From an uncultured Rhodospirillaceae bacterium (lineage in GTDB: Bacteria > Pseudomonadota > Alphaproteobacteria > GCA-2731375), in assembly GCA_964507245.1 (NCBI GenBank), contig CAZDQC010000006.1, positions 1 to 55,504 on the forward strand: a stretch of DNA of 55,504 nt, read 5' to 3'. The translations under genes were made by a program, and so were the position numbers. Positions 25,263 to 43,726 of the stretch are shown piece after piece. Every line of letters begins with the position of its first letter. Positions within the stretch are counted from its first letter, which is position 1. The notes under the pieces are model-generated. The model was not told where the DNA came from and searched no databases. It worked only from the letters and a program-made list of their open reading frames with translations.

Positions 25263-26786
25263 TCAGTAGGTAGAATCCGGAACGGCCGCCTTCTTATTAG
25301 TAATAAACTCGCTCAAGGATTCGTCAATGGCCGGGTCTAACTCTGGCGCCATATAATCAGTTAGCAATTGTTTCCAAAGGCCATTGGCCCGCGCGGTCGC
25401 ATCCAGACTACCGTCAATCTCCCATTGTTCCACCGAATTGTTATCGGCAATTCCCGAAATATAAAATGCCTGCTCAAAATTGCGTTGAGTATGATCGCAA
25501 CCCAGGAAGTGACCGCCCGGACCGACCTCGTGAATAGCGTCCATGGCCTGGCCGTTTTCAGATAAATCAACACCCTTGGCATAGACCGCCATCATACCCA
25601 ACTGGTCACAGTCCATGACGAATTTTTCATAGGAAGAACAAAGCCCCCCTTCCAGCCAACCTGCCCCATGGAGAACGAAATTAACGCCACCGTTCATGGT
25701 GGCTTGCAAAGTATTGGCGCTTTCATAGGCGGCCTGAGCATCGGTTATCTTAGATGCACATAGGGCGCCTCCGGACCGAAATGGCAAGTTTAGGCGTCGG
25801 GCCAGTTGCGCCGCACCCAGCAGCAACAGATTAGATTCTGGCGTTCCGAAGGTTGGTGCTCCGGACTGCATGGAGATAGAAGAAACGAAGGTCCCGAAGA
25901 TCACGGGCACGCCCGGCCGGATGATCTGGGTCAAAGCCACACCGGCCATGGCCTCAGCCAGCAATTGGCTCAGCGTGCCAGCAACCGTCACCGGGCTCAT
26001 GGCCCCGGACAATATAAAGGGTGATACCACACAAGCCTGATGATGGCGGGCGTAGACCTTCAAGGCGCCCAGCATGGTGCCGTCGAACAGCAAAGGCGAG
26101 TTGGCGTTAATCAGGTTCACCATGACCACGTTTTGCTCGACGAATTCATCACCGAATACCAGCTTAGCCATATCAACACTGTCTTGGGCCCGATCTGGTG
26201 CCGTCACCGATCCCATGAACGGCTTGTCGGACAATTTGATATGACTATAGACCATATCCAGGTGGCGTTTATTAACTGGCAGATCCACTGGCTCGCACAC
26301 CGTGCCGCCGGAATGGTGTATATGGGGTGATAGATAGGCCAGCTTCACAAAATTGCGGAAATCCTCAATCGTGCCATAGCGGCGGCCGCCATCCATATCC
26401 CGCACAAACGGTGGGCCATAAACCGGAGCGAACACCATATTGTCGCCGCCAATCTCTACGCTGCGGGCAGGATTACGTGCATGCTGAGTAAATTGCGCAG
26501 GCGCCGTGGCAATTAATTGCCGTAACAACCCTTTTGGAAATCGTACTCGCTGGCCCTGAACGTCAGCGCCAGCGCCGCGCCAAAGATTCAGAACTTCATC
26601 GTCATCTCTAAATTCAATGCCGATGTCCTGTAACAGTTGATCCGCATTCGCCTCAATTTGAGCCAGCCCTTCTTCGTTCAAGACTTCCTGACAGGGTACA
26701 CGGCGGATGAGATAGGGTGCTGAAACGGTCATTTTGGCGGCTCGGCTTTCCCGCCTTGCGGCACGTCCTCCGGATCGTCTGGCCAT
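25263..26786 (-). CDS. MttB-superfamily (trimethylamine methyltransferase family) substrate:corrinoid methyltransferase, non-pyrrolysine type
   Basis: 507-aa uninterrupted ORF with no in-frame TAG. It has the Arg-rich N-terminus (MARRSGGRAARRESRAAK) I recall from bacterial MttB homologues and a TIM-barrel-length body. It is clustered with a corrinoid protein, an activase and a pterin methyltransferase. Confidence 0.8.
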   Translation of the reverse strand: MARRSGGRAARRESRAAKMTVSAPYLIRRVPCQEVLNEEGLAQIEANADQLLQDIGIEFRDDDEVLNLWRGAGADVQGQRVRFPKGLLRQLIATAPAQFTQHARNPARSVEIGGDNMVFAPVYGPPFVRDMDGGRRYGTIEDFRNFVKLAYLSPHIHHSGGTVCEPVDLPVNKRHLDMVYSHIKLSDKPFMGSVTAPDRAQDSVDMAKLVFGDEFVEQNVVMVNLINANSPLLFDGTMLGALKVYARHHQACVVSPFILSGAMSPVTVAGTLSQLLAEAMAGVALTQIIRPGVPVIFGTFVSSISMQSGAPTFGTPESNLLLLGAAQLARRLNLPFRSGGALCASKITDAQAAYESANTLQATMNGGVNFVLHGAGWLEGGLCSSYEKFVMDCDQLGMMAVYAKGVDLSENGQAMDAIHEVGPGGHFLGCDHTQRNFEQAFYISGIADNNSVEQWEIDGSLDATARANGLWKQLLTDYMAPELDPAIDESLSEFITNKKAAVPDSTY

Positions 26787-27021
26787 AACTGAACCTACCC
26801 CTATTCAAATACCGGTTCAAACGCCACTGTTCTAACAAAAACTACCCGTCAAAGATCATAGAACTATTTCAGGGACGCCTGTAAGTATCCAAATCACGAC
26901 AGGAATTGGCGCAACTGTATCGGCGTAAATGGGATTGCTCTTGTCACATCGTGTTTAGCACGCCAAATTCATAAGAATTTGCTTGCCATCGTCGAATTGG
27001 GAAATTGACGAAAGGGTTACA

Positions 27022-27624
27022 ATGAACGGCAATGGACAAACCCTGCTGATTTGTTGCGGCGCCACAGCGCGGGAGATAACGGTACCCATAGACGGCAATG
27101 GCCTGGATTACATGAAAGTGGAGGGCTTGCCTGCCAGTCTGCATAATAGACCGAAATTCATCCCTGAACGGGTGCACAAAAAGATTAGGGCGAACCGGGA
27201 CGGGTTCGAACGCATCCCGGTTTTGTATAGTGACTGCGGCACTGGGGGACAATTGCAGAAGGTGCTGGATGAGGAAGGTGTTCACGGATTGGGCGGAACC
27301 CACTGTTACGAAATGTATGCTGGCGTAACTGCCTTTGCCGCAATTACTGAGGACGAAGTCTGTTGTTTTTTTCTCACCGATTATATGACCCAACACTTTG
27401 AACGGTTGGTCATCCAAGGTCTTAGTCTGGATAGACACCCGGAGTTGCGGGACAGTTACTTCGCCAACTACCAGAAAGTTGTCAGTCTCGCGCAGAGAGA
27501 TGAACCGGCGTTGCGTGATTTGGCCGCTTCCGCCGCCGGCCGATTGGGATTAGATCTAGAAATTCGACAAACCGGATACGGCAACTATCGCGACTTCATT
27601 TCGCACCATGCCAGAACATCCTGA
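27022..27624 (+). CDS. DUF1638 domain protein
   Basis: About 200 aa starting MNGNGQTLLICCGA...DYMKVEGLPASLHNRP. As far as I recall, DUF1638 is a family usually found beside corrinoid methyltransferase genes. 17-nt overlap with the activase gene. I prefer ATG 27022 to TTG 26983. Confidence 0.65.
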   Translation: MNGNGQTLLICCGATAREITVPIDGNGLDYMKVEGLPASLHNRPKFIPERVHKKIRANRDGFERIPVLYSDCGTGGQLQKVLDEEGVHGLGGTHCYEMYAGVTAFAAITEDEVCCFFLTDYMTQHFERLVIQGLSLDRHPELRDSYFANYQKVVSLAQRDEPALRDLAASAAGRLGLDLEIRQTGYGNYRDFISHHARTS

Positions 27625-29614
27625 TCCGAAACAGCACATCTGTGAAACTACGGTGGTCTTCATGCCATCGGGTCTACGCGGGCACTTTTCCAAAGGCACA
27701 ACCTTACTGGCGGCTGCGCGATCGCTAGGCGTTGATATAGATTCGGTTTGCGGCGGGCGGGGCATCTGCGGACGCTGTCAGGTGACCGTGGCGGAAGGCG
27801 AATTTGCCAAGCTGGGTATACAATCGCGGAACGAGCATCTGGCCGCCTTCGCGGATAATGAAATTCGCTTTAACGGACGAAAAGGACTCCTACCTGGCGG
27901 CCGGTTAAGTTGTTCGGCAAGACTGACCGGCGACATCGTGATCGATGTACCCGCGGAAAGCCAGATTTACCGGCAAATCGTTCGAAAACGCACAAACGCC
28001 CGGACCGTGCGGATCGACCCCATCATCCGGCCCCTCTATGTGGATTTTTATGAAAATTCGTCCGATGCACCCGTCACCCGACTGCGCGCCGCCCTGCGAA
28101 AACAATGGCAAATCGACGCCACGGTGCAGGAGACCGTGACAACTCAACTGAAGGGTGACGAAAAAAATCTTACGGTTGCTCTGCGGGAGGAAAAGCATGT
28201 TGTCGCAGCCTGGTCGGGTTTTCGCGAAAACCTAGCGGGCCTGTCGGTGGACATCGGCTCAACCACTGTTGCTGCGCAACTCTCGAACTTGGGAAGCGGC
28301 GAGATCATGTCGGAAGCAGGCATCATGAACCCGCAAATACGATACGGCGAGGATGTAATGAGCCGTGTCTCTTACGTCATGCTGAACCCCGGCGGCCAAG
28401 ATTTACTTACAAATGCCATTCGAACCGCAATCCAAGATTTGGCTACAGACTGCGCCCAGACCGCCAGGATCACTCGCCAGGATATCGTGGAGTTGACCAT
28501 CGTAGGAAATCCCATAATGCACCATCTTTTCCTCGGATTGGATGTGGTTCCCTTAGGCCAAGCACCCTTTCCCTTAGCTGAGGACGGTCCGATTACATGC
28601 CTGGCGAGCGCACTTAACCTCGATCTTAATCCAGGTGCCCATGTCCACATCCTACCCTGCATCGCCGGACACGTGGGCGCCGATACCGCGGCCGTAATCC
28701 TGTCTGAGGCGCCTCAGGAGAGCGAGGACACCACCTTACTCGTGGATATAGGAACCAACGCGGAAATTGTCCTAGGTAACCGGATGCGGCTGTTAGCTTG
28801 CTCAAGCCCCACGGGTCCGGCATTTGAAGGGGCTCAGATTTCATGTGGGCAACGGGCAGCAGCCGGAGCCATCGAACGTGTACGGGTCGATCCCGTGACT
28901 TTAGAACCCCGTTTCAAGGTCATAGGCTCAGACTTGTGGTCAGACGATCTGGAGTTTCTTTCCTCAGTCGGGGATATAGGTGTGACCGGCATCTGCGGCT
29001 CCGGCATTATCGAGGCGCTAGCGGAACTATTCTTATGCAGCGCCGTCAGATCCGATGGCCTATTCGATCCCGATAAGGCCGTAATGAATTCGCGCCTTGA
29101 AAAGGACGGACAGACCTATCGGTATCTTCTGCATGCGGGACCACCTGCCATTCACATAACCCAGCTAGACATCCGTAACATACAATTGGCAAAGGGCGCG
29201 GTATATGCCGGCGCCCGGTTGTTGATGGACAAATTAGCCGTGGATCACGTGGATCGGATCGTGCTGACTGGTGCCTTTGGCAGCTACATTGATCCCAAAT
29301 TCGCCATGGTTCTGGGGCTGATCCCTGATTGTCCACTGTCAAAGGTCTCTGCCGCCGGAAATGCCGCAGGTACAGGTGCTCGCATTGCCCTCTTGGATAA
29401 GGCAGCGCGAACGGAAATTGAAAGGGTCGTCCAGGATGTGGAGAAGATAGAGACAGCACTGGACCCCAATTTCCAGGATCAGTTTGTAGGTGCCATGGCG
29501 TTTCCTCACGAAATTCACACCTTTCCCCATTTATCGAAGGAAGTCGCCATACCCCGTCAGGAAACTGCGGTTTCCTTGAAACGGCAACGACGCGGCCGGC
29601 GGCGGCAAAGATAA
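27608..29614 (+). CDS. corrinoid reductive activase (RACo/RamA-like: N-terminal 2Fe-2S ferredoxin + ASKHA ATPase domain)
   Basis: Plant-type ferredoxin motif SVCGGRGICGRCQV...LSCSA, then an actin-like ATPase body (VDIGSTTVAAQL, LVDIGTNAEIVLG, TGAFGSYIDP). C-terminal KRQRRGRRRQR tail. Confidence 0.8.
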   Translation: MPEHPDPKQHICETTVVFMPSGLRGHFSKGTTLLAAARSLGVDIDSVCGGRGICGRCQVTVAEGEFAKLGIQSRNEHLAAFADNEIRFNGRKGLLPGGRLSCSARLTGDIVIDVPAESQIYRQIVRKRTNARTVRIDPIIRPLYVDFYENSSDAPVTRLRAALRKQWQIDATVQETVTTQLKGDEKNLTVALREEKHVVAAWSGFRENLAGLSVDIGSTTVAAQLSNLGSGEIMSEAGIMNPQIRYGEDVMSRVSYVMLNPGGQDLLTNAIRTAIQDLATDCAQTARITRQDIVELTIVGNPIMHHLFLGLDVVPLGQAPFPLAEDGPITCLASALNLDLNPGAHVHILPCIAGHVGADTAAVILSEAPQESEDTTLLVDIGTNAEIVLGNRMRLLACSSPTGPAFEGAQISCGQRAAAGAIERVRVDPVTLEPRFKVIGSDLWSDDLEFLSSVGDIGVTGICGSGIIEALAELFLCSAVRSDGLFDPDKAVMNSRLEKDGQTYRYLLHAGPPAIHITQLDIRNIQLAKGAVYAGARLLMDKLAVDHVDRIVLTGAFGSYIDPKFAMVLGLIPDCPLSKVSAAGNAAGTGARIALLDKAARTEIERVVQDVEKIETALDPNFQDQFVGAMAFPHEIHTFPHLSKEVAIPRQETAVSLKRQRRGRRRQR

Positions 29615-29700
29615 GGCGTGTTAACCACTTGTCGCTGACACCTGGACCCCACTATCATCGCAGCGCATAACTCTCGCCAGCGTGGATGGGATAGCTGCTC

Positions 29701-30669
29701 ATGGTCACCTCGGATAAGCCTGTCGCGCCGCATCATGTTGCTTTCGTGTTGGTTCCGGACTATTCCCTGATCGCCTTTGCATCCGCGATCGAACCATTGC
29801 GACTGGCCAATCAAATCGGCGAACAAACCGCTTATCAATGGAGCTGCCATACCCTGAATGGTGAGCCGGTAAAGGCTAGCAATGGCCTAACAACCCAGCC
29901 TGATGGCGGCCTGGACGCCATCGGCGGTGCCGATCTCGTGGTGGTCTGCGCCGGTTTGAACGTTGAACGGCAGCGACATTCTACAGCCCTTCTCTCGCGC
30001 CTACGTTATCTGGCCAGCCACGGCGCCACCATTGGCGCTATTTGTACGGGCACCTACCTTTTGGCCAAAGCAGGCTTGCTGGATAACCACCGCTGTACCA
30101 TTCACTGGGAAAATCTACGGGGTTTCCAGGAGGAATTTCCTCAAATCGAGGTGACGTCGGAGTTATTCGAATTCGACAATCGCCGGGTGACGTCCGCCGG
30201 CGGTACCGCGTCTTTAGATATGATGCTGCATTACGTAGCGACACAATATGGTGCGGATCTAGCCACCAGCATTGCGGATATGATGATGCATCACCATATT
30301 CGGCCCGGCGACGACCCCCAACGCCCGGATCTGCGAGTCCGGCTGGGCGTGTCGCACCCAAAGTTGGTAGCTACTATCGCCTTGATGGAATCTGGCCTCG
30401 AGGCGCCGCTAAGCTGCCGCCGTCTATCGCAAGCGGTAGGCCTCTCATCACGCCAGTTAGAACGGCTATTCGCGCAACATTTGGGCACGACGCCTATGCG
30501 CTACTATTTGCGCCTTAGATTGTTTCAGGCCCGTCGACTGCTAAAACAGACCTCTATGTCCGTATTACGTATCGGGCTAAGCTGTGGTTTTGTCTCGGCC
30601 TCGCATTTTTCGAAATGCTATCGGGAGACTTTCAACAAAACCCCCAGTCAAGAACGAGCGAGGTCATAA
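29701..30669 (+). CDS. GlxA-type (DJ-1/PfpI GATase1-like + AraC HTH) transcriptional regulator
   Basis: N-terminal VAFVLVPDYSLIAFASAIEPLRLAN and ICTGTYLLAKAGLLD (DJ-1 fold). C-terminal AraC HTH GLSCGFVSASHFSKCYRETFNKTPSQER. Confidence 0.85.
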   Translation: MVTSDKPVAPHHVAFVLVPDYSLIAFASAIEPLRLANQIGEQTAYQWSCHTLNGEPVKASNGLTTQPDGGLDAIGGADLVVVCAGLNVERQRHSTALLSRLRYLASHGATIGAICTGTYLLAKAGLLDNHRCTIHWENLRGFQEEFPQIEVTSELFEFDNRRVTSAGGTASLDMMLHYVATQYGADLATSIADMMMHHHIRPGDDPQRPDLRVRLGVSHPKLVATIALMESGLEAPLSCRRLSQAVGLSSRQLERLFAQHLGTTPMRYYLRLRLFQARRLLKQTSMSVLRIGLSCGFVSASHFSKCYRETFNKTPSQERARS

Positions 30670-30696
30670 GGCAAACCCCGTTTGACTTAGCCGTAT

Positions 30697-31611
30697 TCAG
30701 CTACGCCTACCCCGGCGGCCGCTACGCCGGCGCGGGGCGGCCCCACTACCATCAGCACTATCGCCGCCAACCGCACGAAATTTTGCAATCCAACTAGCGC
30801 AATTTTGGTCATGCCCCATGACGACATTGGCCCCCATCACGGCCGACATTTCTTCGTTATGCAGCGGGTTAGTGATAGCCGATGTCAGGCCAGCGCCAAT
30901 CGCCATGGCAAGAAACGACCAGTTCAAGCCATGCCGGTTCGGCAGGCCAAAGGAGAAGTTAGAGGCGCCGCAAGTAGTATTGACCCGCAACTCCTCTCTT
31001 AGACGGTGGATAATGGATAAGGCCTGCCGGCCCGCCTGACCGATTGCGCCGACGGGCATAACTAGGGGATCCACCACCACGTCACCGCGGGGGATGCCGT
31101 GATCTTCGGCCCGCTCGACGATCTTTTTGGCGATGGAAAAACGTATGTCCGGATCTTCCGATATACCGGTTTCGTCGTTTGAAATAGCGACCACGGCCGC
31201 GCCGTACTTTTTTACCAGTGGTAGAACTGATTCAAGTCGTTCCTCTTCACCGGTCACGGAATTGACCAGGGCCTTGCCTTGATAGACTTCCAATCCGGCC
31301 TGCAAAGCGGCAACGATGGAAGAATCGATAGACAGAGGCACGTCAGTCAAACTTTGCACCAGTTGGATTATCTCGGCCAGGATACGTGGTTCATCTGCCA
31401 GTGGTATACCCGCGTTAACATCCAACATATGCGCACCGGCGGCGACTTGGGCCAAGGCGTCCGATGCGGCCCGGGAATAGTCTCCCTCTTTCATCTCGTC
31501 CGCCAGCAGCTTGCGACCGCTGGGATTGATACGCTCGCCAATGATAGTAAAGGGACGTTCGGTCCCAATCACCACTTCCTTGCTAGCAGAACTGACGACG
31601 GTTTCGGTCAT
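30697..31611 (-). CDS. pterin-binding methyltransferase (methyl-corrinoid:tetrahydrofolate methyltransferase, MtgA/AcsE/MetH-pterin-domain-like)
   Basis: IIGERINPSGRK, LDVNAG and CGASNFSFGLPNR, typical of the pterin-binding (DHPS-like) domain. It starts 7 nt after the corrinoid protein gene. Confidence 0.8.
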   Translation of the reverse strand: MTETVVSSASKEVVIGTERPFTIIGERINPSGRKLLADEMKEGDYSRAASDALAQVAAGAHMLDVNAGIPLADEPRILAEIIQLVQSLTDVPLSIDSSIVAALQAGLEVYQGKALVNSVTGEEERLESVLPLVKKYGAAVVAISNDETGISEDPDIRFSIAKKIVERAEDHGIPRGDVVVDPLVMPVGAIGQAGRQALSIIHRLREELRVNTTCGASNFSFGLPNRHGLNWSFLAMAIGAGLTSAITNPLHNEEMSAVMGANVVMGHDQNCASWIAKFRAVGGDSADGSGAAPRRRSGRRGRRS

Positions 31612-31618
31612 AGCCCGG

Positions 31619-32341
31619 CTATCCGCCGCGCGCAGCGAGAGAACCCTGACGACGGCTCATTTGTTCAACGGCGATTTCCACGGCCGATGCGGCATCCCGG
31701 CAATAGGCATCCGCGCCGATCGCCTGAGAAAATTCCTCATTCAATGGCGCGCCACCGACCAACACGATGTAGTCGCTGCGCAGGCCTTTTTCTGCCAAGG
31801 TGTCAATCACCACCTTCATGTATGGCATTGTCGTGGTCAAGAGCGCCGACATACCGAGGATATCCGCCTGATTTTCCTCCAACGCGGTCAGGAAATCTTC
31901 CACTGACTGATTAATGCCAAGATCTACCACCTCGAACCCGGCGCCTTCCATCATCATAGCCACCAGGTTCTTACCGATATCGTGTATATCACCCTTGACT
32001 GTGCCAATGACGATCCTACCCATACGGGGTGCGTTGGAGGCGATGAGTAAGGGTTGTAATATGGCCATGCCCGCCTTCATGGCGTTGGCGGACATCAATA
32101 CCTCTGGTACGAACAAGATGCCGTCGCGAAAATCAATGCCAACGATGCGCATGCCTTCGACCAGGGCCTCGTTTAGGGTCCTTTGTGCGTCCCACCCCCG
32201 ATCCAGCAGGATTGTAGTGCCTTCTGCAATTTCATCCGCCAGTCCATCGTAAAGGTCATCATGCATCTGAGCTACAAGGTCTTCATCGCTCAACGTCGCC
32301 AAGTCTATGTCGTCTTCGCTTGCCGCTATCTCATCCGCCAT
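31619..32341 (-). CDS. cobalamin-binding corrinoid protein (B12-binding cap + Rossmann domain)
   Basis: His-on motif GTVKGDIHDIGKNLV (DxHxxG), GMSALLTTTM (SxL) and LVGGAPL (GG). I prefer ATG 32341 (GGAG RBS); the longer ORF to 32500 has W/C/R-rich junk. Confidence 0.85.
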   Translation of the reverse strand: MADEIAASEDDIDLATLSDEDLVAQMHDDLYDGLADEIAEGTTILLDRGWDAQRTLNEALVEGMRIVGIDFRDGILFVPEVLMSANAMKAGMAILQPLLIASNAPRMGRIVIGTVKGDIHDIGKNLVAMMMEGAGFEVVDLGINQSVEDFLTALEENQADILGMSALLTTTMPYMKVVIDTLAEKGLRSDYIVLVGGAPLNEEFSQAIGADAYCRDAASAVEIAVEQMSRRQGSLAARGG

Positions 32342-32740
32342 ATCGCCAACTCCAATTGGTGCCAACAATGACTTAGCGCAGGAAAAATTCCAGCCACGCC
32401 CGCCTGTATATTGTAAACTTCGCCACCAGATTCTGTCGCCCAGGAGACTGAAACTATACCATTTACGACATTTTCTGCTGAAGGCCGGACGAGACGCCAT
32501 GGCGCAAAATCCACTTTCAACTCAATGCCAAAATTCGGAATTACAGTCAGTTTGATCGCTGGTTCGGGGTCCACCCAAATTCGCTTGGGCACGCCCGTGT
32601 TTGATCACCACCTGTTGAAGGTAGGTAGAAGAGTAGGCGTCAAGGGTGCCACGAAATTGCTGCGGCCATCCGTCTTGACCGAGTTGTGACATGGGCGATA
32701 CGTTGGCCAACAATAAAAAGTACAATCGTGGAGGAGAGTT

Positions 32741-33907
32741 ATGGTTTCAGTCGCCGTTCACCCTAAGCAGTTTCCCTGGTTCGACTATTCTACTTACTCT
32801 TTTTCTCTCGGCATCGATGCGGGCGAAGGCATCTATCTGTCCGGTCATACGGCGTCGGCGTACGACGAAGAGGCCGGTCGGATCACTATCAAGGGCGGCA
32901 TGGCTGAACAGGCGCGCACTGCCTATGAAAAAATTGCTGCCATCCTGGAGGGTGCAGGCAAGTCCTTTGGGGATGTTGTGCGAGTGGTCGAGTATGTCAA
33001 GCCTGAAGGAATTGAGCGCTATGGCGAGGCTGCGGCTGTACGCGAGGAAGTATTTGGTAGCCACCGCCCCGCTGTTAATACCGTGCCAGTCAAGGCACTG
33101 TTACGCCCCGCCGCATTTATTGAGATTGAAATCACCGCCGGTCCAGTGGCCGCGGAAACCGGTTTCGGCACCGGTCTTCCTGTTGCGCGGGAGTCGTCCG
33201 GAGTTGTTTTTCTACCCACGGTGCAGGCAGTAAACGAGAATGGCGAGATTATCGGACCCGGTGACGTAGTTGCCCAGACGGCAGCGATATTCAAGAAAGC
33301 CAAGAAGATGCTGGAAACACTGGGTCTCGGCTTTGATTCCGTAGTAAAGACCCTCGACTACATCACTCCAGCAGCATTGGCCGACTATCGCGGCACTGGT
33401 AGGGTACGCAAGGAATTCCTGGGGCCTGTCTATCCTGGCGCTGCAGGGATCCTAATGCCGCGCCTGCTCCACTCGGAAGCGTTGATCCAGTATGATTTTA
33501 TCGCCTCCCGCGATAAAACAGTTGCCGTGAACCCCGGCTGGGACCGTTATGAAAAACTGACCTATAGCCCGGGCGTCCGAGCTGGCAAACTGCTGTTTCT
33601 TTCCGGTCAGGGTTCGCTTGACCCAAGCACTGAACGGGTCGTACATGACGGTGATGTCGTAGCACAAGCGGAATATACCTACAATAATATCTTCAAGGTC
33701 ATCGAGGCCGCTGGCGGAACACCAGGAAATTTGGTGAAAACGATCGAATATGTCACACCAGCGGCACTCGCACGCTATCGACAGGTCGGCGCCCTACGTG
33801 CCAAGCAGTTAAGCCAGCCCTACCCCGCGGCTACAGGCTTGATCTGTGAGGCCCTGTTGCGCCCAGAAATGCAGATCGAGGTTGATCCCTTCGCTGTGCT
33901 GGATTGA
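32741..33907 (+). CDS. triple-tandem RidA/YjgF/L-PSP-family protein
   Basis: 388 aa, resolvable by eye into three modules of about 125 aa. They end ...PAVNTVPVKALLRPAAFIEIEITA, ...PGAAGILMPRLLHSEALIQYDFIA and ...PAATGLICEALLRPEMQIEVDPFAV, each preceded by a GDVVAQ/GMAEQA...helix-type segment. Confidence 0.75.
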   Translation: MVSVAVHPKQFPWFDYSTYSFSLGIDAGEGIYLSGHTASAYDEEAGRITIKGGMAEQARTAYEKIAAILEGAGKSFGDVVRVVEYVKPEGIERYGEAAAVREEVFGSHRPAVNTVPVKALLRPAAFIEIEITAGPVAAETGFGTGLPVARESSGVVFLPTVQAVNENGEIIGPGDVVAQTAAIFKKAKKMLETLGLGFDSVVKTLDYITPAALADYRGTGRVRKEFLGPVYPGAAGILMPRLLHSEALIQYDFIASRDKTVAVNPGWDRYEKLTYSPGVRAGKLLFLSGQGSLDPSTERVVHDGDVVAQAEYTYNNIFKVIEAAGGTPGNLVKTIEYVTPAALARYRQVGALRAKQLSQPYPAATGLICEALLRPEMQIEVDPFAVLD

Positions 33908-38975: not shown

Positions 38976-40184
38976 CTATGAACTGGCGACCACAGGTGAA
39001 TTGCTGCGGCCATATAGAAATGCCCGTGCAATCCAACTGTGAAAAGCATGCGTGGGTTGATCCATCACGGGGGAAAATATACCACCATCAAAACCGATAG
39101 AGTGACGGCCCCGCTGCATACTTTCTACTGCAGTTCTATCCTCGACAAAAATTGATTGCCACAGCTCCCTATTTGCGATCCGTTGGGTATGGTAACCATG
39201 ATCGCGCACCCTTCTATCAAAATAGTAAATTTGCATCCTTTCTCTAGTGCGGTAGGGGCCGTCCGGTTGGATTAGGACGGCATAAAAATGATCGCGATGA
39301 AGGCCTAAAAGAACGTTGGGGAAAAGGGCAACATATTCAGCACCACTATGCCAAAACGGCGGAAGATTAGCGGCATTCGGTATCGCAGGAGCATCCTCAG
39401 AAAACTTAGGTTCATAACATCTGCTGCCCTGCCCAGAATAGGATTGATGAACGATGCCGTAATGCTGCTCCAGTGGAGAATACCGGTTCAATTCTGGATG
39501 CACCCAAGGCAGATGGTAGGCCTCGCAATAATTCTCGACCGCCAGCTTCCAGTTGCATTCAAGCTCAATTTCGATACGACAATCGGCGCCGGTATCGACG
39601 AGATCTATTTCTGCAAAAACCTTCCAGCGTTCAGCAAGGGGCTTAATGTAATCAGCAAACGGTTGAGCGGTACCGGACAGATCAACGAATATCAGGCCAA
39701 ACCATTCGGCACTGCGCACCTTGCATAGTCCGATGTCATTTTTGTTGAAACCGGGACAAGTGTGTTTACCTGCGCCACCTATATGCGGTGTGCCGATCAA
39801 TTGACCTTCTAAGTCATAGGTCCAACTGTGATAAGGGCAGATAATGACTTTGCCGGAGTTGATCGACGCCTCGACTAATATTCTGCCTCGATGCCGACAC
39901 ACATTATGAAATACTTGAACTACATCATCTGTATTACGGATCAGAAGCAGCTGCGATCCAGAGAATTCAATCGGAAATAAATCGCCTCTATTTGGCACAT
40001 CCAATGCAAATCCCACACATGCCCATCCGTCTTTGAAGACCCGTTGCTGTTCAATTTCCATCGTTGCGGCGTCGGTATAACAGGCATTGGGTAAGCCGCG
40101 TGCCGTTTCTATGGGTTCAAGTACCTTCTCCATAGCAACGGCCAATGTGCCGGAAATTTCACTTGAACGGGGACAAACATCCAT
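38976..40184 (-). CDS. Rieske [2Fe-2S] non-heme-iron oxygenase alpha subunit (GbcA/Stc2/CntA-like class)
   Basis: Rieske motif CRHRGRIL...CPYHSWTY and a catalytic-domain EAYHLPWVHP. The start is uncertain (ATG 40184, TTG 40196 or ATG 40133). Confidence 0.8.
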   Translation of the reverse strand: MDVCPRSSEISGTLAVAMEKVLEPIETARGLPNACYTDAATMEIEQQRVFKDGWACVGFALDVPNRGDLFPIEFSGSQLLLIRNTDDVVQVFHNVCRHRGRILVEASINSGKVIICPYHSWTYDLEGQLIGTPHIGGAGKHTCPGFNKNDIGLCKVRSAEWFGLIFVDLSGTAQPFADYIKPLAERWKVFAEIDLVDTGADCRIEIELECNWKLAVENYCEAYHLPWVHPELNRYSPLEQHYGIVHQSYSGQGSRCYEPKFSEDAPAIPNAANLPPFWHSGAEYVALFPNVLLGLHRDHFYAVLIQPDGPYRTRERMQIYYFDRRVRDHGYHTQRIANRELWQSIFVEDRTAVESMQRGRHSIGFDGGIFSPVMDQPTHAFHSWIARAFLYGRSNSPVVASS

Positions 40185-40449
40185 AGCGGCTTCCAAGCAG
40201 AGATATCATAGCGATTGATACTAGGCTTGTTATGACCCAGCCACAATCACCACTCTCAGAATTGCAAAAGGAATTATTTGTATATTGGTGATTAAAATCG
40301 CCATCTTAATGTCATATCTAAAATTCTATCTGCACAGCAAGGGTCCAGATTTTTCGGGCCAGCAAGGATCCATAGCGTTACTCCGGAACGTACGGGAACT
40401 TCCCGGTCCTGAATTGCACCAGCTCAATGTTCGCCGTCCAAATTCAGAA

Positions 40450-41400
40450 TTAGACTGACGTCTGATTCTTTAGCGGGCTCAAAGCAGCTATATGGTCTGT
40501 TGTGAGACCGCAGCACCCACCAACAATTTGCAAACCGTTTTCAATCCATTCAGACGCAAACTGTTTCAGCTCATCGGGCGGAATAATATCTTCAAACTGC
40601 CAGTGCGGTGATTTGAAATAACCAGAATCGGGGTAGGCCAGCAGCGGCCCTTCATAGGCCTGACCCAAAATATTGAGTGCATCTCCAATGACGTTCGCTT
40701 GCGTATGCATTACGCCAGCAGCCGATACTTTAAAATCCTGAAGCGCCTGGATTATGTCCGAGAAAGGAATATCTCTATCCTGGGCAAAACTGAGGACCCG
40801 TCCATCGTCGTGCCGCCGGGCTGAAAAGCCGGCCCATATAGGAAGACCAGTCTCTTTTGCTGCCGTAAATGCAGCTCCCATCCTTTCAGGATAATACATC
40901 ATCTCCAAAAGGATCAGATCACACCCCTGCCCTCGCAGAAGCATAGCTAATTCACCAAAGGCATCATCCATTTCGCCTTGAGAATGTAATCTCGTCAAAT
41001 CTGGAATTGCTGTACCTTTTGCAACGGCTCCCCGATGGGATAAAGATCCTGCGATCAAGACATCATCTCGTCCACTTGCGTCCCGGCCTCGATGTGCTGC
41101 ATCTACCGCCGCGTTATTGATATCTATGAAATGTTTGGCCAACCCCGCCGGTTCAAGCAGTAAGCGTGACGAGGAAAAAGTATTTGTCGTAATGATATCA
41201 GCACCCGCGGCGATGTAATCTCTATGAATTGACTCAAGAATGCTCTTGTATTCAAGCGATGCCGCACCACACCAGGCTTCAGTGTCCATAGGCACGCCAC
41301 GCCGTTCGAGCTCTGTACCTGTCCCTCCGTCAAGAATGAGAATGCCGCCATTTTGTAATTGGCGCTTGGCGTTTTCGTAGCTCGTCAACGAAGTCTCCAA
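40450..41400 (-). CDS. homocysteine S-methyltransferase family protein (BHMT/MmuM-like)
   Basis: ILDGGTGTELERRG at the N-terminus, TNTF, and a C-terminal VGGCCGLTTDHI Zn motif. Confidence 0.8.
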   Translation of the reverse strand: METSLTSYENAKRQLQNGGILILDGGTGTELERRGVPMDTEAWCGAASLEYKSILESIHRDYIAAGADIITTNTFSSSRLLLEPAGLAKHFIDINNAAVDAAHRGRDASGRDDVLIAGSLSHRGAVAKGTAIPDLTRLHSQGEMDDAFGELAMLLRGQGCDLILLEMMYYPERMGAAFTAAKETGLPIWAGFSARRHDDGRVLSFAQDRDIPFSDIIQALQDFKVSAAGVMHTQANVIGDALNILGQAYEGPLLAYPDSGYFKSPHWQFEDIIPPDELKQFASEWIENGLQIVGGCCGLTTDHIAALSPLKNQTSV

Positions 41401-41505
41401 AGTGGTTCAGTCGTCATCAATGAAACTCCGCAACACATTGTCAGGCTGGACAAATCACCTAGTTATCTAGATCCATTACAATAGTCGTAATTCGTGAATC
41501 CTAAT

Positions 41506-41895
41506 TTATTTCCGTTTCTTCTCCTCTGTCGGCCCGCCGGCATCCCGCCATGCCGGAAGTCCGCCAAATAATTGTGCCACATTTTTGATACCCATATCCT
41601 GAAGTGATTTGGCGCAGAGGGCCGAGCGCCATTCTGCGTTACAGAACAAAACATACGTCTTGTCAGCATCACTGTAGACATCTCGATGGTACGGACTTTC
41701 GGGGTCGAACCAGAATTCGATCATGCCGCGTGGCGCGTGCCGAGCGCCCTTGATAGTACCACTTTTCTCGACTTCGCGAATATCTCGCACGTCGACAAAT
41801 ACCAATTCGCCGTCACCATACCGTGGTAATGCCTCATCCACTGTCAAAGACATGATTTCGGTCTGCGCCTGTTCAGCAAGATCCTTAATACCCAT
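41506..41895 (-). CDS. single-domain rhodanese-like sulfurtransferase
   Basis: 129 aa. Active-site loop FCNAEWRSA (CxxxxR[ST]). VFVDVRDIREVE is typical of the rhodanese fold. Confidence 0.8.
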   Translation of the reverse strand: MGIKDLAEQAQTEIMSLTVDEALPRYGDGELVFVDVRDIREVEKSGTIKGARHAPRGMIEFWFDPESPYHRDVYSDADKTYVLFCNAEWRSALCAKSLQDMGIKNVAQLFGGLPAWRDAGGPTEEKKRK

Positions 41896-42418
41896 GTGCC
41901 TATTTCACCCCAATATATAGCTTGTCAATCATGACTATCTGGGAATGTCCCGAAGGTAAACAAAGATGTGTTGTCATAAACCTTGAATTCAAATTCCTAG
42001 ATACCCCCTATTTGACCGACCCAGTTAGAATTTAGGTGATTGACTGGCCTGATTGACGCCAGCAGAACGCTTACACCCAGGCCACGAGTTAGCGTCGCGA
42101 AGTAAAAATATTTGTCGTAAGCTATAATCAAAAAGAGACTGCTCGCAGAAGTATGTCCTCGCGGGTTGTATGTGAGTTACGATTATTGGTGTTGAGTTAA
42201 TGCTGAACGGCACAGTTGATGCGTATAGCTATTTTTGTGCTGGCGAACAGGCAGGATTTTTAGATCACCATAGACCTGGTTGTTGGCTGGCAAGGGGGAG
42301 CCACCGAATTTCGGGCGCCTGGCTAAAGTCTTCAAAAATAGTAGTCCTGAGTCAACCATTTGTTGTCTAACCTCAAAATCGGCAATGAATTAAACCACCT
42401 AAAATAGAAAGAGAGAAA

Positions 42419-43726
42419 ATGGCAACCGATCTGGCTAAATATGCTGAGGATAATGGTATTAGATTTTTCCTCATGAATTTCACTGACCTATTTGGTTTGC
42501 AGCGGTCGAAACTGGTGCCCGCAGCCGCTATTAGTGATATGCAGAAATCTGGCGCTGGATTTGCTGGTTTTGCTGCCTGGTTGGACATGACGCCGGCACA
42601 TCCCGATATGTTTGCCGTACCGGATGGGGATGCAGTCATCCAGTTGCCGTGGAAACCGGAAATAGCCTGGGTTCCAGGTGATCTTTACATGAACAATGAG
42701 AAAGTCTCCCAAGCTCCACGCAATGTCCTGCAAACTGTAATGGAGAAGGCGGCGGGAAAAGGATTGTTATTGAAAACCGGTGTCGAGCCGGAGTTCCATC
42801 TCATCAATGAAGATGGTTCCGCCATTTCCGATGAACGTGATATTCAAGAAAAGCCATGTTACGACCAATCTGCGCTGATGCGTCGATACGATGTCATCTC
42901 TGAAATTTGTTCGTCGTTGGAACAAATGGGATGGGGTCCATACCAAAATGATCACGAAGATGCCAACGGCCAGTTCGAAATTAATTGGCATTACAATAAC
43001 TGCCTTAATACCGCCGACCAACTTTGCTTTTTTCGCTTTCTCGTAAAATCAATCTCGGAAAAACATGGCCTACGAGCAACCTTCATGCCTAAACCCTTCA
43101 GTCATCTTACCGGGAACGGCTGCCACGTACATGCGTCATTGTGGAGCCTAGATGAAAAAACCTGCCTAACTCACGACCCTAAAAATGAACTAGGTATCTC
43201 TGAATTGGGTTATCACTTTCTTGGGGGGGTACTTGCCCACGCCAAAGGGCTCGCGGCCATAACAAATCCAACTGTTAATTCCTATAAACGCATCAATGCT
43301 CCAACAACCGCCTCCGGTTCTACTTGGGCACCGAACACCATTACATTTGGTGGCAATAACCGCACCCATATGGTGCGGGTACCAGATGAAGGTAGGTTCG
43401 AATTCCGTTTAGCTGACGGCGCAGCAAACCCATATTTGTTAATGGCGGGTTATCTTTCAGCCGGATTAGATGGTATCGACAATAAAACAAATCCGGGAAA
43501 ACGGCTTGACATCGACATGTATGCTGAAGGCCACAAAATTAGGGGTGCAAAAAAGCTACCGCTTTATTTGATCGATGCCATTCGCGAATTCACTAAGGAT
43601 CGCGTACTGCGAGCGGCCCTGGGCGAAGAATTTTGTGATGCCTACATAAAGTTAAAGACGGACAATTGGGATCAGTATTCCCGCCACCTTACACAGTGGG
43701 AGCGCGACAACACACTTGATTGCTAA
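42419..43726 (+). CDS. glutamine synthetase family protein (type III GlnT / gamma-glutamylalkylamide synthetase-like)
   Basis: 435 aa with FLMNFTDLFGLQRSKLVPA, GVEPEFHLI, NGCHVHASLW and SYKRI. Length and N-terminus match the GlnT/GmaS-size class rather than GlnA. Confidence 0.8.
   Translation: MATDLAKYAEDNGIRFFLMNFTDLFGLQRSKLVPAAAISDMQKSGAGFAGFAAWLDMTPAHPDMFAVPDGDAVIQLPWKPEIAWVPGDLYMNNEKVSQAPRNVLQTVMEKAAGKGLLLKTGVEPEFHLINEDGSAISDERDIQEKPCYDQSALMRRYDVISEICSSLEQMGWGPYQNDHEDANGQFEINWHYNNCLNTADQLCFFRFLVKSISEKHGLRATFMPKPFSHLTGNGCHVHASLWSLDEKTCLTHDPKNELGISELGYHFLGGVLAHAKGLAAITNPTVNSYKRINAPTTASGSTWAPNTITFGGNNRTHMVRVPDEGRFEFRLADGAANPYLLMAGYLSAGLDGIDNKTNPGKRLDIDMYAEGHKIRGAKKLPLYLIDAIREFTKDRVLRAALGEEFCDAYIKLKTDNWDQYSRHLTQWERDNTLDC

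Follow-up and report, generated by a model that had tools for sequence, protein, structure and literature searches.

The stretch of DNA considered here comprises 55,504 nucleotides of contig CAZDQC010000006.1 from an uncultured Rhodospirillaceae bacterium (assembly GCA_964507245.1) and is referred to, in its full length, as the window. The list of open reading frames (ORFs) and the Pfam domain calls place six genes between positions 25263 and 32341 (Table 1). The locus is the MtgB/MtgC/MtgD/RamA/DUF1638 cobalamin methyl-transfer system of aerobic bacteria from sea and soil, an identification that combines the Pfam and PDB matches with what has been published on the genetics of MtgBCD/E, RamA and DUF1638 in Ruegeria pomeroyi (PMC12478193). 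Four of the encoded proteins have strongly charged ends: the methyltransferases MtgB and MtgD and the activase RamA are basic at one terminus, and the corrinoid carrier MtgC is acidic at its N-terminus. These ends were pointed out in a first-pass annotation of the DNA, whose gene names agree with the Pfam domain calls (PF06253 for MtgB, Fer2 and RACo for RamA, PF00809 for MtgD, B12-binding_2 and B12-binding for MtgC) and whose four quoted peptides are reproduced exactly by the translations.

Table 1. Charged termini and genes of the mtg locus, in coordinates of the window.
Feature	Position	Strand	Basis and remarks
Basic N-terminal peptide of MtgB, MARRSGGRAARRESRAAK	26733..26786	-	translation; net charge +6, against -20 for the core
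Arg-rich C-terminal tail of the RamA activase, SLKRQRRGRRRQR	29573..29611 (stop to 29614)	+	translation; net charge +8, against -18 for the core
C-terminal extension of MtgD: Gly/Ala/Asp linker, then Arg cluster PRRRSGRRGRRS	30700..30774 (with stop 30697)	-	net charge +7, against -13 for the core
Acidic N-terminus of MtgC, MADEIAASEDDIDLATLSDEDLVAQMHDDLYDGLADEIAEG	32219-32341	-	translation of the first residues
Acidic N-terminal extension of MtgC, residues 1-27	32261..32341	-	net -9; variable acidic stretch, then D-I/L-D-L-x-x-L-x-D-x-D/E-L-V-x-Q-M-H
mtgB-like gene, non-pyrrolysine MttB-superfamily methyltransferase (MT1), 507 aa	25263..26786	-	PF06253, E=1e-234, residues 4-502; ORF uninterrupted
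DUF1638 gene (reactivation-associated)	26983..27624	+	PF07796; no charged tail
ramA, RACo-type reductive activase of corrinoid proteins, 668 aa	27608..29614	+	Fer2 + RACo_linker + Raco_middle + RACo_C_ter
GlxA-type regulator gene (DJ-1/PfpI + AraC helix-turn-helix)	29701..30669	+	domain calls
mtgD, methyl-tetrahydrofolate:corrinoid methyltransferase (MT2, pterin-binding), 304 aa	30697..31611	-	PF00809
mtgC, corrinoid (cobalamin) carrier protein, 240 aa	31619..32341	-	B12-binding_2 (PF02607) + B12-binding (PF02310)

The charged termini stand out clearly among the 40 genes of the window. MtgB ranks highest with 6 Arg within its first 20 residues (next 3), RamA and MtgD do so with 8 and 7 Arg within their last 20 residues (next 5), and the first 41 residues of MtgC, which contain 15 D/E and no K/R, form the most acidic N-terminus (next 10). 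MtgC as a whole carries a net charge of -25 and has an isoelectric point of 4.1. A closer inspection of the peptides modified the original description. The 41-residue start of MtgC is indeed acidic, but the extension proper covers only residues ~1-27; from residue 28 onwards the protein aligns with ordinary corrinoid proteins (PDB 1y80). The basic segment of MtgB that had been described as a tail is present as well, but it falls inside the Pfam MTTB model (residue 4 corresponds to profile position 1), and is a family-typical N-terminus and not a locus-specific tail. The RRxGRR-like tails that were said to be common to the three enzymes resemble each other in composition and do not share a sequence motif.

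We compared the termini over 80 related loci from reference genomes of Alpha-, Beta- and Gammaproteobacteria (SUP05 and SAR116 included), Actinomycetota (Acidimicrobiia, Thermoleophilia/Gaiellales) and Chloroflexota, and aligned the MtgD homologues (alignment A1) and the MtgC homologues (alignment A2). The conservation of the tails in orthologues was borne out for all four proteins across several phyla. MtgD has an Arg-rich tip in 77 of the 78 complete genes (median of 7 Arg in the last 20 residues), preceded by a variable linker of Gly/Ala/Pro/Glu (median, 24 residues), and the same arrangement of a tip after a variable linker is found in 120/120 of its closest database homologues. At least 5 Arg are present in the last 20 residues of RamA in 63 of the 66 complete orthologues. 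The basic segment of MtgB reads RRxGGRxA(R/K)RxxR in 32/32 orthologues, and a basic N-terminus is also kept by MttB paralogues of 27-46% identity, which presumably act as alternative methyl donors to the same MtgC. The acidic extension of MtgC is found in 63/63 loci: the 20 residues that precede Q25 always include 6 or more D/E, and their median K/R count is 0. Moreover, L14, L17, L22, Q25, M26 and H27 are invariant in the 40 homologues of alignment A2; the acidic segment is a real motif with invariant leucines, and more than a simple polyanion. The pattern repeats on replicons of Azoarcus, Paracoccus aminovorans, Sinorhizobium, Shinella and Aminobacter. Since the tails are conserved across phyla despite the turnover of their sequences, the alignments point to selection on composition.

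The Arg-rich C-termini are restricted to members of the system. When every stop-to-stop ORF of 150 amino acids or more in the window and the related loci (about 1.5 Mb) was screened for 6 or more Arg among its last 20 residues, only two real families emerged, namely MtgD (MT2, 74 loci) and the RamA activase (47 loci). The other matches were singletons or small clusters that resemble out-of-frame ORFs of DNA rich in guanine plus cytosine (GC), and the single-linkage clustering of the ORFs was contaminated by such Arg-rich spurious frames. Base composition does not explain the tails, because their Arg count drops slightly with rising GC content (rho -0.25). In addition, the preference for Arg over Lys (532:4 in the tails of MtgD and 409:52 in those of RamA) is also seen in loci of 43-49% GC, and the tail codons are mostly CGN and not AGGAGG. 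An embedded ribosome-binding site is no source of the MtgD tail either, because the window keeps this tail without having ramA after mtgD.

The start sites of MtgB and MtgC are backed by their orthologues. Met19 (26732), which the first-pass annotation had put forward as a possible true start of MtgB, can be set aside: the basic segment is kept in frame upstream of it in 32/32 orthologues, Met19 itself is not conserved, its position is occupied by Gly or Pro in 4yyc and others, and the match to the Pfam model already begins at residue 4. For MtgC the ATG at 32341 is the start, as had been assumed before, and not the ATG at 32500 of a longer ORF; translation of the orthologues starts from the corresponding Met, which in many of them has stop codons a short way upstream. 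The sequence GGAG lies ~10 nucleotides ahead of this ATG. Moreover, a closely related environmental variant (run X26) has C for T on the plus strand at 26732, by which codon 19 of MtgB changes from ATG to GTG, and the metatranscriptome contig with this GTG runs 23 nucleotides past the upstream ATG of MtgB.

The basic tails and the acidic extension were predicted to occur together, and this is what is found: in all examined loci of the MtgC clade (66% identity or more) the extension is paired with tailed partners. The corrinoid protein of Gemmatirosa, which is MtgC-like at 53% identity, lacks the extension, and its RACo-like and MtgE-like neighbours lack tails; a locus of Acetoanaerobium has neither feature. 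In a haloarchaeal locus the corrinoid protein has an acidic N-terminus and the activase has no tail, a case that says little because the proteomes of halophiles are acidic throughout. The extension of MtgC is absent from 1y80, 4jgi, 7xcn_M and MetH, and the basic N-terminus of MtgB is absent from the MtgB of Desulfitobacterium hafniense and the MttB of Methanosarcina barkeri. Indeed, the solved proteins of anaerobes (MtgB, corrinoid protein and MT2 of D. hafniense, the corrinoid proteins of Moorella and M. barkeri, and the RACo of Carboxydothermus hydrogenoformans) align with the cores only. More specifically, the alignment of MtgB with D. hafniense MtgB (2qne/9yce) begins only at residue 30, those of MtgC with the corrinoid proteins of anaerobes begin at about residues 20-28, MtgD aligns with its PDB homologues (MeTr, the folate domain of MetH and D. 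hafniense 4o0q) only to about residue 279, and RamA aligns with C. hydrogenoformans RACo (3zyy) from residue 13 to residue 641, where the alignment ends. How acidic the MtgC extension is and how many Arg the tails contain are weakly and positively correlated (rho 0.33, p 0.014, no phylogenetic correction).

A fourth partner of MtgC, the homocysteine-binding protein MtgE (PF02574), was absent from the first-pass annotation and supplies an independent prediction. If the tails are a device for docking to MtgC, then MtgE should carry one. It does so in many lineages, such as the Steroidobacteraceae, Sinorhizobium, Shinella and at least 13 further clusters at 50% identity, and this concerns a gene that is frequently unlinked from the mtg operon (PMC12478193). 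For instance, the MtgE-like gene of locus L018 ends in ...ARARRTTSRRGAQAENN and 120/120 of its close homologues end in a tail of the RR(T/S)TxRR type; these homologues are near-identical Steroidobacteraceae sequences only, and the breadth came from a library of 50%-identity clusters and from plasmid and chromid records. The library contains at least 13 distinct clusters of proteins of 330-450 amino acids with at least 5 Arg in the last 20 residues, having tails like RNRRRRQ, RPRRRSRRR, RTRRRRRRAG and RRARRSRRRG. The MtgE proteins of Sinorhizobium and Shinella end in ...ARERRRRA and ...RERSRRRG, respectively. A shorter class of PF02574 proteins, of about 295-306 amino acids, ends directly after the catalytic domain.

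The best explanation for these observations, to which we would assign about an even chance on the comparative data, is that the Arg-rich tips are recruited electrostatically to MtgC. In such a scheme MtgC would be one small carrier that is visited in turn by MtgB, MtgD, RamA and, encoded elsewhere in the genome, the homocysteine methyltransferase MtgE. Because the enzyme cores (net -13 to -20) and MtgC (net -25) are all acidic, their unaided encounters would be repelled. The partners would have added short and probably disordered Arg-rich peptides, at the N-terminus in MtgB and at the C-terminus behind a flexible linker in MtgD, RamA and MtgE, and MtgC would have gained its acidic N-terminal peptide. 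Our proposal is that the tips would attach to MtgC through its acidic surface, and there most likely to the N-terminal extension. The outcome would be a weak and fast-exchanging tether that raises the local concentration of the carrier and lets the enzymes take turns, and that might be seen as the non-covalent counterpart of the peptide linkers between the modules of MetH. A precedent is provided by the MtaC-MtaB complex (PDB 2i2x), in which an N-terminal addition to the corrinoid protein likewise holds the partner methyltransferase: MtaB has a groove into which the extra domain of MtaC docks (PMC9842639). The addition to MtaC is a folded domain for one partner, whereas that of MtgC is a peptide of ~27 residues, presumably common to four partners with matching basic peptides.

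The tethering or recruitment that was suggested in the first-pass annotation is thus partly supported by the conservation of the termini, their co-occurrence and the prediction on MtgE, but a common RRxGRR recruitment motif is not part of it and the tail is missing from the MtgE of Paracoccus. Four enzyme families, the MttB proteins, the pterin-binding methyltransferases, the RACo/RamA activases and the homocysteine S-methyltransferases, have converged on such a peptide, and MtgC is their only common partner. A function is favoured over a single event because the features outlast a heavy turnover of sequence and because MtgE, often encoded elsewhere, shares the tail. The basic N-termini on divergent MttB paralogues would fit a situation in which many methyl donors plug into one carrier. 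It is possible, though distinctly less probable than recruitment as such, that we are dealing with a 'hub-and-tails' docking code. The disordered poly-arginine tips of the four families would then recognize the MtgC peptide D-L-x-x-L-x-D-x-x-L-V-x-Q-M-H, by which they would replace the linkers of MetH, let any MttB paralogue plug in, and perhaps enable the oxygen-sensitive Co(I) chemistry in aerobes by means of a permanently escorted carrier.

Several findings weigh against electrostatic recruitment. All tailed systems fall in one MtgC clade, and the co-occurrence possibly represents a single ancestral event for that reason. DUF1638 is also a member of the system and has no tail. The same holds for the MtgE-like proteins of Paracoccus denitrificans and P. 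pantotrophus, which end in ...MGPGE, and for the PF02574 protein of the window (40450-41400), which lies 8 kilobases (kb) from the mtg locus in the part of lower GC content and is only a candidate orthologue of MtgE. The disorder of the tails is weakly supported by single-chain AlphaFold2 models of poor quality, with a mean predicted local distance difference test (pLDDT) score of 49 for MtgD (A1) and 62 for MtgC (A2). The tail of MtgD is predicted as coil in its poor model; in that of MtgC residues 1-17 are predicted as coil and residues 19-30 as helix, with low confidence. The invariant leucines in fact suggest that the extension of MtgC is partly structured, and it may have a different role, such as packing on its own cap domain. 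The N-terminus of MtgB is a defined motif and could, by analogy to the N-terminal strands of M. barkeri MttB, serve oligomerization. Finally, Arg-rich peptides bind any polyanion, RNA included.

The last point leads to the alternative that survives best, although we consider it unlikely. The tails may bind another polyanion (RNA or ribosomes, polyphosphate, nucleoid DNA or an anionic membrane) and gather the enzymes of the pathway there or in a condensate, with the MtgC peptide acting as a co-acervating or competing partner. The tails are carried by otherwise acidic proteins, are variable in sequence and length and, given the large excess of Arg over Lys, are compositionally like arginine-rich RNA-binding motifs; moreover, comparative data cannot distinguish which polyanion is bound. 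However, binding to another polyanion leaves unexplained why the carrier gained an acidic extension in the same clade and why, among the neighbouring genes, the tails are restricted to partners of MtgC. In addition, there is no scaffold or shell gene that is conserved among the loci, and no RNA element was detected in the window, the entire length of which gave no match in an Rfam scan.

Somewhat less probable still is the possibility that the termini serve each protein separately, in charge compensation or solubility, oligomer assembly, stability or protection of the active-site entrance, and that their co-occurrence was inherited from an ancestral operon. The enzyme cores are strongly acidic, the N-terminal residues of M. 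barkeri MttB stabilize its hexamer, the MtgB segment is a defined motif within the Pfam model, and the tailed systems form a single clade, all of which is in line with separate roles. Nevertheless, the same unusual solution would have been required in four enzyme families whose homologues in anaerobes manage without tails, and one of them, MtgE, is often encoded far from the operon. The survival of the tails through extensive sequence turnover across phyla also speaks against separate roles.

It is very improbable that the termini are signals by which the proteins are sorted, be it to be exported or to be encapsulated in a protein compartment. The idea that they target the proteins was raised as an alternative in the first-pass annotation and found no support. 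The cargo of encapsulins and microcompartments is marked by short terminal peptides shared by linked enzymes, and an encapsulin/DyP pair is found near the Paracoccus aminovorans locus. The peptides described here, however, lack the hydrophobic or amphipathic features of twin-arginine translocation (Tat), encapsulin or bacterial microcompartment signals. There is no hydrophobic stretch (h-region) after the Arg cluster, and the peptides are located at either end of the proteins, three of the four tails being C-terminal. Shell or translocase genes are not conserved in the 80 loci. Moreover, the enzymes are cytoplasmic, depend on cofactors and use tetrahydrofolate, and the Paracoccus encapsulin adjoins its own cargo. 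The latter family 1 shell gene and its DyP peroxidase are situated on plasmid IV (locus L090, 6505-8330), about 7 kb from the mtg locus; the pair is not conserved in other loci and its proximity is probably coincidental. An artefact of chance, composition or annotation (wrong starts, read-through into GC-rich sequence or an embedded Shine-Dalgarno sequence) is effectively refuted: spurious ORFs of GC-rich DNA frequently have Arg-rich ends and the mtgD stop abuts the ramA start in many loci, but the tails are in frame ahead of conserved stops in genomes of 43-70% GC, their Arg count does not rise with GC, the start sites and the codon usage argue against it, and the tail of mtgD persists in the window where the next gene is the convergent regulator.

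The system itself is already known; it is the charged termini that appear to be new. Phaeobacter inhibens is the species in which it was first recognized, as a 'split methionine synthase' (Price et al. 2018, PMC5764234), and genetics in Ruegeria pomeroyi have shown that it serves glycine-betaine demethylation and methionine synthesis, with DUF1638 counted as a component (Mausz et al. 2025, PMC12478193). In fact, MtgBCD(E) has been reported as a major route of glycine-betaine demethylation and as the sole methionine synthase of many abundant marine bacteria (PMC12478193). The loci of R. pomeroyi and P. inhibens resemble that of the window in the presence of the same five protein families in one locus, and related loci have the GlxA regulator and betaine-related genes nearby. 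The papers on MtgBCD(E) describe the genes, their genetics and their distribution, and do not mention charged termini in the main text (PMC12478193, PMC5764234). The earlier statement that such tails are undescribed for methyltransferase/corrinoid systems agrees with our search, in which no mention was found in the openly searchable full texts on these systems, subscription-only literature being outside its scope.

A comparison with other cobalamin-dependent systems puts the termini in perspective. MetH performs the same chemistry with homologous homocysteine, folate, cap plus cobalamin, and reactivation modules. Its modules are covalently tethered in a single chain, whereas the window system consists of separate proteins in which charged termini may replace the linkers; reactivation depends on the S-adenosylmethionine (AdoMet) domain in MetH and on the RamA/RACo ATPase in the window system. 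The anaerobic three-component systems (MtgB/MtgC/MtgA of D. hafniense, MttB-MttC of M. barkeri, the Moorella corrinoid protein and RACo-CoFeSP of C. hydrogenoformans) are built from homologous proteins that divide the work in the same way among MT1, carrier, MT2 and activase but, unlike the window system, their solved proteins have no basic terminus and no acidic carrier extension. Acidic hubs that are recognized electrostatically by many partners are familiar from acyl carrier protein and from ferredoxin and flavodoxin, usually by way of folded basic patches, and the basic Rubisco-binding peptides of CsoS2 and CcmM are examples of short cationic peptides that act as multivalent tethers. We know of no earlier description of a corrinoid system in which all partners bear terminal poly-Arg tips and the carrier has a dedicated acidic peptide.

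A charge-complementary pair of peptides would provide a concrete hypothesis, testable by truncation, for the hand-off of a carrier among up to four enzymes plus the activase without the covalent tethering of MetH. The termini form a signature that separates the aerobic MtgC clade from the anaerobic systems by sequence, and the tails might make it possible to foresee which of the MttB paralogues and of the homocysteine methyltransferases feed a common carrier. They could possibly also serve as a portable tag in the engineering of B12-dependent methyl-transfer cascades. If the tails bind something other than MtgC, they would imply an unrecognized localization of the pathway.

The database matches of the individual proteins are in line with the assignments of Table 1. 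MtgB matches 4yyc, a 'putative trimethylamine methyltransferase' that is its nearest solved MttB relative, over residues 6-505 (E=1e-236), and RamA matches 3zyy (E=2e-84). The closest homologues of MtgD are annotated as 'methyltetrahydrofolate cobalamin methyltransferase'. In MtgC the DxHxxG motif is formed by D118-I-H120-D-I-G123 and is invariant in alignment A2. MtgC shares 72-76% identity with the corrinoid proteins encoded at the corresponding replicon loci of Sinorhizobium, Paracoccus aminovorans and Azoarcus. The identity of MtgC and MtgD to their counterparts in many Alpha- and Gammaproteobacteria amounts to 70-80%, SUP05 and SAR116 genomes of the sort listed in PMC12478193 included. 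The source organism is a marine bacterium: the DNA of the window is present in many marine metagenomes, and the nearest protein homologues are labelled as Rhodospirillaceae metagenome-assembled genomes. According to metatranscriptome contigs, mtgB is transcribed at a low level.

The substrate of MtgB was considered on the basis of the D. hafniense enzyme, in which glycine betaine is bound by the four residues Y97, R312, H348 and F356 (PMC13080624). As read from the alignment, Y97, R312 and H348 look conserved in the MtgB of the window. The position of F356 aligns with Gly, and there is a Trp four residues earlier. Because of this Gly the substrate may be a quaternary amine other than glycine betaine.

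The arrangement of the genes differs from that of the usual MtgBCD(E) operon. In loci L003, L014, L034, L049, L089, L090 and most others the order is mtgC, DUF1638, (the 'virulence factor' gene), a gene for an MTHFR_C-domain protein, metF2, mtgD and ramA, flanked on one side or the other by mtgB. The mtg genes of the window are rearranged into divergent units, and genes for metF2, the MTHFR_C protein and the 'virulence factor' are missing from it. A scan for promoters and terminators in the region of 25-33 kb performed no better than on shuffled sequence. The DUF1638 gene and that of the GlxA/AraC regulator are positioned among the methyl-transfer genes. DUF1638 is co-located with mtgC in 66 related loci, and the family of the GlxA-type regulator adjoins the system in 21, and also in the loci of Azoarcus and Paracoccus; the regulator probably controls the locus and stands outside the tail feature. 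In the proteobacterial operons the small 'virulence factor' protein has a gene of its own, located between DUF1638 and MTHFR_C. On plasmid 1 of Gemmatirosa kalamazoonensis (L085, 14967-15957) a domain that resembles this family is fused to the C-terminal end of the corrinoid protein (pairwise BLASTP, E=9e-4), and the fusion suggests that the uncharacterized protein works directly with the corrinoid carrier.

Divergent from mtgC, a protein with three RidA/L-PSP (PF01042) repeats is encoded at 32741-33907, followed by two MaoC-like hotdog proteins. Further along the window, near 38-40 kb, the GC content falls from about 0.55 to about 0.47 (segment 38000-55504), which could stem from a genomic island, a segment of a different replicon or a join made in the assembly. 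Within it lies a cluster (38976-43726) that encodes the alpha subunit of a Rieske/ring-hydroxylating oxygenase (38976-40196), the PF02574 homocysteine S-methyltransferase mentioned above and a glutamine-synthetase-like protein (42419-43726), and that may constitute a second route for the metabolism of quaternary amines or methylamines.

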